Source of the DNA: a virus
Length of the DNA: 64,000 bases
Direction: 5' to 3' (one strand)
IMG/VR virus record: IMGVR_UViG_3300020469_003811
Location: 3,795-67,794 of that record
The notes under the pieces were generated by a model, which saw only the letters and a program-made list of their open reading frames with translations, did not search any database and had not been told where the DNA came from. The position numbers and the translations under genes are program-made. Positions 3,705 through 46,727 of this stretch are shown one piece after another (positions within the stretch are counted from its first letter, which is position 1; each line of letters begins with the position of its first letter).

Positions 3705-4175
3705 TTATTTTTTTGCAAATAATTCCGCATCATCTAACCCTGCTACCCTTAATTTTACAATGTTATTAATTTGAAACTGCTTTGAATCAATAGCTTTTAA
3801 CAATCCTAAAAACTTATTCCTCAATAATGCAAACTCATTTACTAGATTCGAAGTGTCTACTACTTCCTGTTCTCCTTCAATATAGTTTTTTACATCATTT
3901 GATGTTAATGCTCGTTGATAGTTTTCTAAATATGTTCTATAGTATTTGCTTTTTACTTGCCTTAATTTAATATTTAGAAATTCTAAGATGGCTTCAATTT
4001 CTTGCAATTGGTTAAACCTATGTTCTACTATTCCTGGAACATTACTAGCATTCTTTTCAATATTTCCTTTCATGCCAGTTTCTACTCTAGCTTCTTCCAA
4101 CTGATCTTCAAAATGGTCTATACAGTCAGGAAGTTTACTCAAGTTTTGTGAAACTATATTATACCATTTTGCCAT
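3705..4175 (-). CDS. uvsY: recombination mediator UvsY
   Basis: Helical 156-aa protein, KQFQINNIVKLRVAG C-terminus, between uvsX and uvsW. Confidence 0.75.
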   Translation of the reverse strand: MAKWYNIVSQNLSKLPDCIDHFEDQLEEARVETGMKGNIEKNASNVPGIVEHRFNQLQEIEAILEFLNIKLRQVKSKYYRTYLENYQRALTSNDVKNYIEGEQEVVDTSNLVNEFALLRNKFLGLLKAIDSKQFQINNIVKLRVAGLDDAELFAKK

Positions 4176-6624: not shown

Positions 6625-6637
6625 ATTATTTCTCCTT

Positions 6638-6730
6638 TGCCTATATTAGCCTTTGTTAGCCTTTGTTAGCCTATGTTTGCCTATGTTTGTATATAATAGT
6701 GTTCAATATCATTACTAACATTAAACACTA
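6638..6730 (-). promoter_or_regulatory. gp32 leader: 15-bp GNRA-capped hairpin followed by ~5 tandem 10-nt repeats up to the SD; putative autogenous translational operator
   Basis: Minus strand TAGTGTTTAATGTTA-GTAA-TGATATTGAACACTA (6730-6697), then ACAAACAT AGGCAAACAT AGGCTAACAA AGGCTAACAA AGGCTAATAT AGGCAAAGGAG. Confidence 0.65.
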
Positions 6731-6758
6731 GTATATCTATTTATGACGGAAATGTCAA
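6730..6758 (-). promoter_or_regulatory. sigma70-type promoter for gp32, with embedded late-type ATAAATA
   Basis: TTGACA-17 bp-TATACT. Confidence 0.75.
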
Positions 6759-6767
6759 CCTAAAAAA

Positions 6768-9184: not shown

Positions 9185-9302
9185 ACTAGACTTTTCCAGG
9201 CCTTCATTCGACAGCGGACTGTACCGGGTGGCGCTCCGACTTTACGGTTCCTGGAAGAGCCAAGGAATTACACCTTGATTTCCCACCATGCATTTCGGTA
9301 CT
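9185..9302 (-). ncRNA. class II (AdoCbl-variant type) cobalamin riboswitch
   Basis: Minus strand GTACCGAAATGCATGGTGGGAAAT CAAGG-TGTAATT-CCTTG GCTCTTCCAGGAACCGTAAAGTCGGAGCGCCACCCGGTAC AGTCCGCTGTCGAATGA AGGC-CTGGAAAA-GTCT: GGGAA, T-loop hairpin, GCCAC box, closing GTACCG/CGGTAC stem, kissing loops TTCCAG/CTGGAA. Confidence 0.88.
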
Positions 9303-44138: not shown

Positions 44139-45602
44139 ATGACTAAGAAATCAAACAAAAATATAGATAAACCTATCTGCAACGCACCATTTACATCAGC
44201 TTATTACTTTGGGCTGAGAGGTAATTTGGGTTTTTGCTGTGCATGGGAAGATGACGAACAGCCGTATTACAAAGTACACAAAGACGGAGCTCCGGAAGAT
44301 TTTTGGACTAGCAAATACGCCCAAGACATCAGACAACAAATGCTTGACGGTGAATGGCCCAAGGGATGTTCTGGTTGTAAGTGGCACGTTGAACGAGGAC
44401 TAGAATCAGATATAGCTGGGTTTGAATCAATACCTGTAGATAAAAAAGACTTTGATGTTGTGTACGGAAATACCACACATAAAAAACCAGTGTATTTGGA
44501 TTACAGGCCAGACAATTTATGTAACTTGTCGTGTATACAATGTAGTCCCGCCAATAGCTCAATAATTGAAAACTTTGGAGACAAAGAAACATGGGGCATA
44601 GGTCAAGACACATGGCGTGGCTCTTTAAAAACACTTAAAGAAAATAAGGATAGACATCATGAAATAGAACAGTTTGTAAATGAACATCTTTTACATCAAG
44701 GATTGTTACAAATAAAAGTACTTGGTGGAGAGCCTACTATCAATGCTGGTGTGCAAAGAACTTTAAAACATTTGATTGATAAGGACTATGCTAAAGATAT
44801 TAGATTAAAGGTTACAACAAATTTTACTAATCTTAATAAAACATACGAACTGTTTTCTCATTTCAAAGAAGTTAGTGTAACTGCTAGTATCGATGGTGCA
44901 GGAAAAACATACGAATATGTCAGACACCCAGCCAAATGGAAAGTTGTTAAAAAAAACATATTGACTTTCATGGAAAAATATCTAACCAAGCCAGGATATT
45001 CACTTTCCGTAAACACCTGTATGATGGCCCACATGGCTTTTACGTTAACAGATTGGTTATCTGAATTGTCAGATATTTGGTTTCGAGAAAGACTTCATAT
45101 TGTGGGTAAACAAGGTATAGATAACTTGTGGGGAAATATTTCTATAATACCTGTACTTGAGCCTCACTCAACCATTAATGCAATACCCAGTAAATTCATA
45201 AATGATATTTTACATGAATTAGAAACATTAAAGAAAACACTAAATGGAAGAAACAAAACGTTTGTAGATGAAATAACTAAATTAGGCTTGAAGCCAAACG
45301 ACTGGCCGTACGTAGGCACACCAGACTACCTCATTGACAAACTGATAAAAGTATTTCAAGATCACAAGTATGATGAACAGGCTCACTATGCATGGGCAGT
45401 AATGGCCGTGGCACAGCACAACTTTAAAAATTGTGATCTCACAAAATTAGATCCACGTTTCCTAGAGATGTTTGATATGCTTGACGAAGGAACCGTGTTT
45501 ATAAAACATAAATTTTATTATCCAGATACTTACAAATCATGGAAGAAAAACAAAGAAAAAGATCCTAATTTTAAATTTTTTCCAACTGCAAAAAAGCCCT
45601 AA
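44139..45602 (+). CDS. radical SAM protein with N-terminal twitch-like Cys cluster
   Basis: CNAPF...FCC...CSGC N-terminus; NLCNLSCIQC; LGGEP; TTN; SIDG; YVRHPAKW. Confidence 0.85.
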   Translation: MTKKSNKNIDKPICNAPFTSAYYFGLRGNLGFCCAWEDDEQPYYKVHKDGAPEDFWTSKYAQDIRQQMLDGEWPKGCSGCKWHVERGLESDIAGFESIPVDKKDFDVVYGNTTHKKPVYLDYRPDNLCNLSCIQCSPANSSIIENFGDKETWGIGQDTWRGSLKTLKENKDRHHEIEQFVNEHLLHQGLLQIKVLGGEPTINAGVQRTLKHLIDKDYAKDIRLKVTTNFTNLNKTYELFSHFKEVSVTASIDGAGKTYEYVRHPAKWKVVKKNILTFMEKYLTKPGYSLSVNTCMMAHMAFTLTDWLSELSDIWFRERLHIVGKQGIDNLWGNISIIPVLEPHSTINAIPSKFINDILHELETLKKTLNGRNKTFVDEITKLGLKPNDWPYVGTPDYLIDKLIKVFQDHKYDEQAHYAWAVMAVAQHNFKNCDLTKLDPRFLEMFDMLDEGTVFIKHKFYYPDTYKSWKKNKEKDPNFKFFPTAKKP

Positions 45603-45625
45603 ATCAAACATCTTAAAAAAAGAGG

Positions 45626-45658
45626 TTGACTATATTTCCTATTCTGTCTTAATATAAT
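45626..45658 (+). promoter_or_regulatory. sigma70-type promoter for the candidate ncRNA
   Basis: TTGACT-18 bp-TAATAT (overlapping TATAAT at 45653). Confidence 0.6.
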
Positions 45659-45661
45659 GTT

Positions 45662-46150
45662 ATTAGGCACATTATAGGCAAACATAGGCAATATAGCATC
45701 TCTACAAAAAGCGAATTACGGTGTAACAACACAGGCGAATCGCACGATGCAAGACAAGTGTTAACTCAGGCACAAATGACAATGGCTCTGCTAGAGAAAG
45801 AAATGCAACCATTATCTTATACATAGACGGTCAGTTTTGGATATGTATAGGTCCCGTTGGATGAAGTAGGATTGATAGGGGTACAGGCCAACCGCCTCTT
45901 TAGGATCCGTAAGCTGGATGACTAATCTCTGGTAATATATAAAGCAATTTAATATTAACAAAGAAAAGTTCTTCACCCGTAGCAGGGTGAAGTATGGCCA
46001 AATCTTGGTAATAAGTGATACAAACAAATATCTAAGTAATCAAATAGAAAACAAAAAAGCTAATACAAAGTACACTATCCAATATGATAACATTCTCCTA
46101 AGAGAATAGAGCATTCCGCCGAAGAGGTGATACGGGTCCGCAAAGAAGGC
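45662..46150 (+). ncRNA. candidate large structured non-coding RNA
   Basis: No credible ORF in ~600 bp; stems GCATC/GATGC, AATGG/CCATT, CTTATACATA/TATGTATAGG, CTTCACCC/GGGTGAAG, ATTCTC/GAGAAT; AGGC repeats at 5' end. Confidence 0.6.
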
Positions 46151-46214
46151 TTGCAAATTTTAATTAAGTATTGTATAGTAAACATAATGACGAAGATTTT
46201 TTTTAGGGGCACCC

Positions 46215-46727
46215 ATGGGTAGTAAATCAAAAACCAAAGGCAAAATTTACGAAAGAGAAATTGCTAATTTTTTAAGTGACTTGTACAACGAGTCATTTAC
46301 CAGAGTACCGCATTCAGGTGCTTTCATTGGCGGACAGAATTTTTCTAGAATACAAAATTTATCAGAAAATCAAACAAGAGGTTTCAAGGGCGATATTATT
46401 CCACCTGACTCTTTTCCACTATTAGTGATTGAAGCAAAAAACTACGGAGAGTTTCGTTGGAATCATCTAGCACTAGGACAACAAGTCAAACAGCTAGACG
46501 AATGGATTGGTCAAGCAGAAGACAGTTGCGAAGACAAAGACAAATGGTTGTTGTGTGTAAAGATCACAAGACAAGGCGAATTTGTGTTATGGGATCCAAC
46601 ACGTTTTACCAATTTAGATCATGATTTGACTTACGGTAAGTATTGTTATATTGAAACAAGTAAGTTTTGGAAAGCCAACAGCGATAAAATCAAAGAACAA
46701 AGTAAAAAACAAAATGTCACAGAATAA
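46215..46727 (+). CDS. Holliday junction resolvase-like PD-(D/E)xK nuclease
   Basis: SKTKG..YERE.A, R.P.SGA, GDI, IEAKN; TTGCAA-17-TATAGT promoter at 46151-46179. Confidence 0.75.
   Translation: MGSKSKTKGKIYEREIANFLSDLYNESFTRVPHSGAFIGGQNFSRIQNLSENQTRGFKGDIIPPDSFPLLVIEAKNYGEFRWNHLALGQQVKQLDEWIGQAEDSCEDKDKWLLCVKITRQGEFVLWDPTRFTNLDHDLTYGKYCYIETSKFWKANSDKIKEQSKKQNVTE

Follow-up and report, generated by a model that had tools for sequence, protein, structure and literature searches.

Some abundant non-coding RNAs (ncRNAs), CsrB and RsmZ in the case of CsrA and 6S RNA in the case of RNA polymerase, display the recognition element of the targets that their protein regulates. Phages encode large RNAs of their own, among them GOLLD and ROOL, which are hundreds of nucleotides (nt) long and have a complex fold and an unknown function. 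Phage T4 provides a further example in the operator of gene 32, in which a pseudoknot and UUAAA/UAAA repeats are both needed for autogenous repression through cooperative binding of gp32 (PMC535899). Here we describe a 64,000-nt stretch of viral DNA (the window; positions 3,795 to 67,794 of IMG/VR record IMGVR_UViG_3300020469_003811, a 67.8-kb viral contig estimated to be 18% complete), in which a gap between two genes holds a large structured RNA. The unpaired 5' tail of this RNA carries AGGC repeats that are also found in the leader of the window's gene for a gp32-like single-stranded DNA-binding protein (SSB). The RNA family is real and new and has a conserved, specific sequence link to this operator-like leader, and the mechanism that we read from these sequences is plausible.

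A structured RNA family in marine jumbo phages

The 612-nt gap at 45603-46214 almost certainly holds a real, independent structured ncRNA, and this RNA is a new family in marine giant (jumbo) phages without a cultured member. A preliminary description of the window had postulated a structured phage ncRNA in this interval, where it saw nested stems and no credible open reading frame (ORF), and the present analysis agrees: the longest ORF in the gap has 71 amino acids (aa) and lies on the minus strand, and both a family of relatives and covariation within that family were found. The G+C content rises to 0.44 at 45700-45899, compared with 0.25-0.36 in the surroundings. A blastn search of GenBank phages with 45400-46400 gave no match.

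The conserved core of the RNA spans 45694-46013. Using nhmmer, we found the element in 24 of the 27 loci fetched through the neighbouring PDDEXK gene, and the remaining three loci each have at most 462 nt of upstream DNA. A strict core motif occurs exactly once per contig in 32 IMG/VR contigs and has no match in the genomes of 185,579 species. These 32 copies represent 31 distinct sequences and fall into 21 clusters at 97% identity, with pairwise identities ranging from 33 to 97%. In addition, we used a 148-position covariance model of the core (R1). The window itself reaches 155 bits with this model, and of 80 metagenome loci 34 are confirmed, three of them as divergent members with 73, 65.5 and 27 bits. 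A looser motif produced 76 matches in bacterial and archaeal genomes, all attributable to chance since R1 confirms none of them. R1 also had no match in five further contigs that hold gp32, which are fragments of only 12-22% and hence uninformative.

The fold of the RNA comprises the following parts.

45696-45750, plus strand: P1 domain, consisting of P1 (45696-700/45746-50), P1a (45711-14/45740-43) and P1b (45721-24/45729-32)
45751-45777, plus strand: joining strand J1/2, with a further AGGC (45768-71) and the invariant AAAUGA
45778-45816, plus strand: P2 hairpin (45780-85/45809-14), closed by G45778-C45816, with the invariant GCAAC in its apical loop
45818-45849, plus strand: P3 hairpin (45818-25/45842-49), whose loop (45831-37) contributes the 5' strand to pseudoknot PK1
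45850-45868, plus strand: 5' strand of P8 (45850-53) and the invariant CCGUUGGAUGA, in which GUUGG (45856-60) is the 5' strand of pseudoknot PK2
45869-45908, plus strand: P4 (45869-73/45904-08), enclosing P5 (45877-82/45894-99)
45888-45892, plus strand: CCAAC, supplied for PK2 by the P5 loop GGCCAACC
45911-45917, plus strand: 3' strand of PK1 (AAGCUGG), pairing with the P3 loop at 45831-37
45924-45970, plus strand: direct repeat within the RNA, copy 1 (AAUCUCUGGUAAU, 45924-36), followed by P6, a clade-specific hairpin insert, and a linker rich in A
45971-45992, plus strand: P7 hairpin (45971-78/45985-92)
45996-46013, plus strand: 3' strand of P8 (45996-99) and copy 2 of the internal repeat, AAUCUUGGUAAU (46001-12), at the end of the conserved core
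46014-46160, plus strand: variable A-rich region with clade-specific 3' hairpins; past 46013 the clades share no alignable sequence

Ten nested helices (P8 weakly) and one pseudoknot are supported by covariation. On an alignment of 21 sequences (A3), the 12-helix structure has 83.8% of its cells paired, compared with at most 45% when the 3' partners are slid as a control, and 35 pairs are changed on both sides compared with at most 11; two helices are off register in that count. With the helix registers corrected (A2), 93.4% of cells are paired against at most 47% in the slid controls, and 24 of 51 pairs are changed on both sides against at most eight. Folding of the single sequence is slightly better than that of shuffles (z = -2.14 for the plus strand and -1.22 for the minus strand).

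Covariation across the related contigs, which the preliminary description had suggested as a check, supports most of the stems that it listed: GCATC/GATGC (P1), GCGA/TCGC (P1a), GTGT/ACAC (P1b), AATGG/CCATT (P2), the long hairpin now counted as the 8-bp P3, AGGGGT/GCCTCT (P5) and CTTCACCC/GGGTGAAG (P7). Two others did not generalize, since CTCT/AGAG is present in the window's own clade only and ATTCTC/GAGAAT is not conserved across clades, while P4, P8 and PK1 had been missed. In the P1 domain, 92-100% of cells are paired, with two pairs in P1, four in P1a and two in P1b changed on both sides; the domain exists in two versions, and other clades carry an extra GNRA-capped hairpin (P1x). P2 is 81-82% paired with four such changes, the distant clade being one column off register in the MAFFT alignment. 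Changes on both sides affect seven of the eight pairs of P3, four of five in P4 and two of six in P5, the latter two helices being paired in 100% of cells. P7 is 93.6% paired with two pairs changed on both sides, and it also scored as terminator-like on the minus strand. The long-range helix P8 is 94.7% paired, mostly through one-sided changes.

PK1, first found by a helix scan, is the best-supported tertiary contact: its seven pairs are formed in 100% of cells and four of them are changed on both sides. PK2, which had been raised earlier as a possible pseudoknot, is likewise paired in 100% of cells and is invariant except for one G-U, an invariance that is consistent with pairing. Numerous unpaired positions are invariant, among them AAAUGA, CCGUUGGAUGA, GGCCAACC and GGGUGA. 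The insert P6 is absent or of different length in other clades, and the gap lengths there are not multiples of three. By eye, the internal repeat of 12-13 nt reads GAUCUCGUAUGAU and GAUUCUGUAUGAU in the distant clade, both copies having changed together.

A distant copy of the core (L252:3447-3588, minus strand; 27 bits, E 0.004) was observed on a metagenome contig with a higher G+C content (0.54). P2, CCGUUGGAUGA, GGCCAACC and P7 are recognisable in this copy, and there is no regular AGGC array upstream of it. Because of this G+C-richer contig, the family may reach past the AT-rich marine clade.

The gap is flanked by two protein genes.

44139-45602, plus strand: radical-SAM-like ORF of 487 aa (Pfam 27.5 bits, slightly below the cut-off of 29.5)
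46215-46727, plus strand: PDDEXK_15 ("resolvase"-type) ORF, the downstream neighbour of the RNA in the window

A relative of the radical-SAM-like ORF was found solely in the 97% twin contig of the window, and in other relatives a small divergent ORF directly precedes the RNA promoter; for both reasons this gene looks like a recent insertion. The PDDEXK protein has the same relatives, in jumbo phages, as the gp32-like protein.

Since the RNA lies directly upstream of the PDDEXK ORF and on the same strand in the window, the region might be taken for a cis-acting 5' leader or riboswitch of that gene, or else for a hidden small protein gene, as the stop-free runs on its minus strand (median 59 codons) might suggest. 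Both ideas are very improbable. Relative to the PDDEXK gene the RNA has the plus orientation in 11 loci and is inverted in 13 (n = 24). Its 3' neighbour changes from clade to clade, and the most distant clade has a convergent gene there, beginning some 240 nt past the core motif. Therefore the element cannot be the leader of one gene. ORFs of at least 70 aa overlap the RNA in seven of 21 representatives and are absent from the other 14; they include two small minus-strand families of three members each (six of the 21 representatives) in addition to two unclustered ORFs. Gaps inside the core (2, 19 and 26 columns) are not multiples of three and would break a reading frame, and long open runs on the minus strand are what we would expect of a T-rich antisense strand.

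The putative promoter of the RNA is as follows.

45626-45655, plus strand: sigma-70-type promoter with -35 TTGACT (45626-31), an 18-nt spacer and -10 TAATAT (45650-55), 9/12 matches

The predicted transcription start is at about 45660-45663. Of the sigma-70-type promoters invoked in the preliminary description, the one at 45626 stands, given that all 43 distinct full-length members have TTGAC upstream of the RNA and their first AGGC shortly (a few bases) beyond the expected start, whereas the promoter scan itself is at chance level (21 sites in the window compared with 17.2 in shuffles). The full transcript probably extends from about 45662 to about 46160 and measures approximately 400-500 nt. 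Contigs from four marine metatranscriptome studies, which provide weak support for transcription, cover 45660-45810, 45693-45870, 45697-45931, 45908-46131, 45925-46075 and 46041-46231. One of these contigs starts at 45660, and none spans the whole RNA. Apart from a 31-nt piece (45591-45621), the stretch 45556-45659, from the end of the preceding gene to the predicted start, is uncovered, and such absence of cover is not evidence. According to a published account of phage PA5oct, host polymerase is used there with TTGAC/TATAATA promoters (PMC7318152).

AGGC repeats of the RNA and the gp32 leader

The RNA is linked to the gp32-like gene by a short repeat that is present at two places in the window.

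45662-45695, plus strand: unpaired 5' tail of the RNA, with AGGC at 45665-68, 45676-79 and 45686-89, running into AUAUAGC at the foot of P1
5560-6624, minus strand: gene for the gp32-like SSB (354 aa)
6625-6759, minus strand: gp32 leader, with a promoter (TTGACA 6758-53, TATACT 6735-30), a hairpin (about 6696-6729), AGGC decamers and the Shine-Dalgarno sequence AAGGAG
6639-6682, minus strand: AGGC array of the gp32 leader, with five decamers and a degenerate sixth unit reaching to 6694

The 16-mer ATAGGCAAACATAGGC occurs exactly at 45674-45689 (plus strand) and 6669-6684 (minus strand), so that the match between RNA tail and gp32 leader noticed earlier is correct. When up to three mismatches are allowed, the window contains six matches, none of them outside the RNA tail and the gp32 leader, compared with 0.57 expected, and none of 100 shuffles reached six. 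Similarly, WAGGC-N5-WAGGC has five matches compared with 0.15 expected. Over the four records that contain both loci (746 kb), we counted 15 occurrences of AGGC-N6-AGGC, of which 14 fall within the RNA tail or the gp32 leader, and none of the reversed pattern used as a control. Arrays of at least three AGGC units are confined to the RNA and the gp32 leader both in the window and in the complete 328-kb genome.

The tail of the RNA and the array of the gp32 leader were kept in every relative examined (43/43 RNAs and 38/38 leaders). Among the 43 distinct members of the RNA, the 5' tail contains three AGGC units in 29, two in eight, four in three and one in three, mostly at a spacing of 10-12 nt. 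The 32 nt before AAAUGA in J1/2 hold one further unit in 22 members and two in the other 21. Thus, as in a sponge or decoy RNA, several copies of the target motif are present in all members (1-4 in the tail and 1-2 in J1/2), and the window's RNA shares the exact 16-mer with the leader. The divergent member L269 has its AGGC array between P1 and P2. In the lineage of L051 and L279, two of the tail units were found to be AGGGC rather than AGGC. The AGGGC-tail pattern matched at least 114 unrelated contigs; gp32 was nearby in two of the 80 loci fetched, but there the match was in the coding region and the leaders had AGGC, and the gp32 leader of this lineage was not found through this pattern search.

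The gp32-like ORF scores 23.6 bits against Pfam gp32 over a slightly mis-set range, below the cut-off of 26.8 bits. Among the tblastn matches listed, the protein is 47-62% identical to its relatives, several of which are annotated SSBs of jumbo phages (Phosso, the PA5oct group, XaC1 and Atu_ph07). We collected 80 gp32 loci with 56-100% protein identity and obtained 38 distinct leaders with an intact start. All 38 have the order promoter, hairpin, AGGC decamers and Shine-Dalgarno sequence, with 3-6 AGGC units in the last 100 nt; 64 of 106 intervals have a spacing of exactly 10. In many leaders the final unit merges into the Shine-Dalgarno sequence as AAGGAGGC. Three larger relatives that contain both loci, one of them the complete 328-kb genome with terminal repeats, have the same leader plan as the window. 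The 11-bp hairpin, which was placed by hand before counting, is 81.7% paired in 22 relatives compared with at most 48.5% when slid, with five of 11 pairs changed on both sides; RNAalifold returned no consensus structure for the gp32 leaders. The leader at 6625-6729 adjoins the SSB gene, includes its ribosome-binding site and combines a 5' fold with tandem 3' repeats, and the AGGC-decamer leader is probably a new, naturally occurring form of the gene 32 operator.

A proposed common ligand and its alternatives

The best explanation as a whole, with a probability of roughly 0.45 by our estimate from the sequences, is that one ligand, most likely free gp32, reads the AGGC decamers on both RNAs. 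The parts of this proposal differ in strength. It is probable that the RNA and the gp32 leader have a ligand in common; the odds that the ligand is gp32, judged by analogy, are about even; and the specific role of a titrating decoy is only tentatively assigned to the RNA. The preliminary description, which had suggested an ncRNA bound by the same protein as the gp32 leader, is thus partly supported.

A host-type RNA polymerase would transcribe the RNA from its own TTGAC/TAATAT promoter, after which the body would fold into a compact pseudoknotted core (P1-P8, PK1 and PK2) with unpaired AGGC tracts flanking the first helix domain. Free gp32 would then load cooperatively on the AGGC decamers of both RNAs. 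Binding to the mRNA leader would repress translation of gp32. Binding to the ncRNA would draw off free gp32, so that the RNA might serve as a buffer or decoy that sets the threshold of repression. Alternatively, binding of gp32 to the ncRNA may switch the folded RNA's own activity according to the amount of free gp32. Within this proposal we infer the binding of a protein, its identity as gp32, the direction of the effect and the role of the folded core.

Several points weigh against a gp32-binding decoy. Outside its operator, T4 gp32 is described as showing hardly any preference for particular sequences (PMC535899), and a core motif of 4 nt may therefore point to a different, sequence-specific protein. 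The AGGC motif is unchanged among the four genomes that contain both loci and hence uninformative about a joint evolution of the arrays, and the order of parts differs, the fold lying 5' of the repeats in the mRNA and most of the repeats lying 5' of P1 in the RNA. The neighbouring protein genes, too, are covered by metatranscriptome contigs, from which neither strand nor level can be read. The cultured jumbo phages Phosso and PA5oct show no detectable homologue of the RNA (R1: best 13.9 bits with E 0.45 on PA5oct, and best 5.7 bits on the Phosso gap described below with filters off) and no sharing of motifs above chance. Finally, the conserved unpaired nucleotides and two pseudoknots exceed the needs of a simple sponge, and therefore the core probably has a further role. 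Indeed, such an elaborate conserved core suggests that the RNA does more than soak up protein. It might itself be an active RNA, such as a ribozyme, a ribonucleoprotein scaffold or a self-assembling particle, for which the AGGC tracts flanking P1 are a switch operated by gp32, although we regard this as unlikely. Stalled replication would in that case raise free gp32, and filaments on the tracts would change the fold or availability of the core at the same time as gp32 translation is shut off.

Apart from the leader or small gene discussed above, four other explanations of the repeats deserve attention. The least unlikely is that the decamers are read by another sequence-specific RNA-binding protein, either a phage translational repressor or a host factor built as an oligomeric ring or from several domains, with gp32 as one of its targets and the ncRNA as the molecule that sequesters or delivers it. 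A 4-nt core at a period of 10-12 nt would suit repeated subunits that each read a short word better than a non-specific SSB, and small unannotated proteins (98-111 aa, no Pfam match) adjoin the RNA in every clade. A general repressor should have more targets, however, and each genome has just two sites with arrays of at least three units, the gp32 leader being one of them; the RegA-type family (PF01818) has no match in the records G000-G003 either, which carries little weight as control genomes are equally silent. It is less probable that the repeats act on DNA as phased operator sites through which a transcription regulator governs both promoters, in which case the function of the RNA would be unrelated to gp32. 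Their period of about 10 nt does equal one turn of B-DNA, and both arrays lie shortly downstream of similar TTGAC promoters. Nevertheless, the units are confined to the transcribed sense strand, their core measures only 4 nt, the distance to the promoter differs (a few nt past the start site in the RNA, after the hairpin in the gp32 mRNA), the leader array fuses with the Shine-Dalgarno sequence, and the RNA has extra units between P1 and P2 in all 43 members. Because of the strand restriction, the fusion, the variable promoter distance and the internal copies, we argue that the decamers are read as RNA and not as DNA.

Still more doubtful is an origin or primer RNA, in which an R-loop would form from the strong promoter and gp32 would coat the displaced AGGC strand while the body acts in the manner of ColE1 RNA II, a structured RNA that serves as the comparison. 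Genes of replication and recombination do surround the locus (the PDDEXK resolvase-like gene here, RNase HI and an exonuclease in Phosso), and the repeats would be present on the displaced DNA strand too. A persistent RNA-DNA hybrid has no need of a compact pseudoknotted fold with invariant loops, however, and the repeats of the gp32 leader are better explained by translational control. The cumulative GC skew of the 328-kb relative is nearly monotonic with no switch at the locus, skew being a poor marker of origins in such phages. Equally doubtful is the idea that the repeats are generic 5' elements, such as stabilisers against decay or stand-by sites for the ribosome or S1, on two highly expressed early transcripts without a shared ligand. 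It would fit that the tracts lack structure and are rich in A, and that AGG looks like a piece of a Shine-Dalgarno sequence, which in many cases the final unit actually is; but other promoters with a GGTTGAC box in the window have no AGGC arrays downstream, AGGC persists as an exact word even where gp32 identity falls to 56%, and the ncRNA has no start codon after its array.

Relation to described RNAs and operators

The RNA does not belong to any family described in Rfam 15. The search that had been proposed for this locus gave nothing at the RNA when the whole window was scanned at gathering score, two chance-level matches outside the RNA when 45500-46300 was searched with E up to 10, and nothing at the RNA's position in eight related loci with E up to 5. 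No match near the gathering score was obtained for GOLLD, ROOL, HEARO, OLE, raiA, transfer-messenger RNA (tmRNA), RNase P, 6S, group I and II introns or EGFOA. In the window, ARAGORN found no tRNA or tmRNA genes, and together with the Rfam searches this upholds the earlier remark that signatures of tRNA, tmRNA, RNase P and introns are lacking. The sole Rfam match in the window is an AdoCbl-II (cobalamin) riboswitch aptamer at 9221-9301 on the minus strand (93 bits; gathering score 36.5). In the complete 328-kb relative (G001), ARAGORN detected a tmRNA (L069:14952-15270, tag peptide ADENLALAA) and approximately 18 tRNA genes across the genome, none of them or any tmRNA gene being in the 20-kb piece that holds the RNA.

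Gene-poor gaps also occur upstream of the resolvase gene at the syntenic place in cultured relatives. In Phosso the gap (L164:2487-3500) is 1.0 kb long with no annotated gene, and in PA5oct (L082:4481-5995) it is 1.5 kb long with only four annotated ORFs of 39-50 aa. The Phosso gap contains a sub-threshold match to EGFOA (RF02955) at L164:2921-3050, on the strand opposite to the resolvase gene (29 bits compared with a gathering score of 37.7, E 0.005). EGFOA RNA has been described in unusually large gene-free intergenic regions (bioRxiv 10.64898/2026.07.01.735769), and its likeness to the present case lies in the gene-free gap at the syntenic place in Phosso, the window's RNA itself giving no EGFOA match. 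The gaps of Phosso and PA5oct may hold other large RNAs. The four ncRNAs reported in the PA5oct publication are at 8.3, 22, 103 and 246 kb, and none of these four is at the syntenic 75.7-77.2 kb (PMC7318152). The SSB leader and the gap preceding the resolvase gene have no more 9-mers in common than expected by chance, in Phosso and PA5oct alike, and the count of GRCTC pairs in Phosso (20 compared with 12 in the control) does not support sharing of motifs.

Our literature searches found no description of this RNA or of an SSB-titrating RNA, with the proviso that the supplements of one study possibly hold fragments. In this study IMG/VR was screened for structured RNAs, and 12 candidates are reported that lie no more than 25 bases upstream of a GP32 gene (PMC10690425). 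They come from the same collection as the window but, as described there, are 29-151 nt long and located in cis; the screen may contain fragments of the RNA or of the gp32 leader.

With the present RNA, the small group of ornate phage RNAs gains a large and well-supported pseudoknotted family, found in ocean jumbo phages whose relatives measure 107, 242 and 328 kb. If the link to gp32 is true, the autoregulation of gp32, a textbook circuit of T4, would gain a second RNA partner in some phages, and the AGGC-decamer leader could help to explain how an SSB distinguishes its own mRNA from other single strands. In the gp32 leader, as in the gene 32 operators of T4 and RB69, a 5' fold precedes short repeats, which are arranged in tandem in unstructured RNA and continue into the ribosome-binding site (PMC535899). 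Here, however, the repeat is an AGGC decamer and the fold a simple hairpin, compared with UUAAA/UAAA and a pseudoknot in T4, and a second repeat tract is on a separate ncRNA, which the account of the T4 operator does not describe (PMC535899).

The few copies of the motif (3-6) and their position in unpaired tracts rather than in hairpin loops set the RNA apart from CsrB, RsmZ and 6S RNA, as does its large pseudoknotted core with invariant loops, which would be superfluous in a sponge. With GOLLD and ROOL it has in common that it is phage-encoded, hundreds of nucleotides long and elaborately folded, whereas, unlike that comparison set, it does not lie beside tRNA genes, with none in the window or in the 20-kb piece of the 328-kb relative. 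Also unlike GOLLD and ROOL, the RNA displays the repeats of the operator-like leader of an SSB gene, and this offers an experimental handle on its function.

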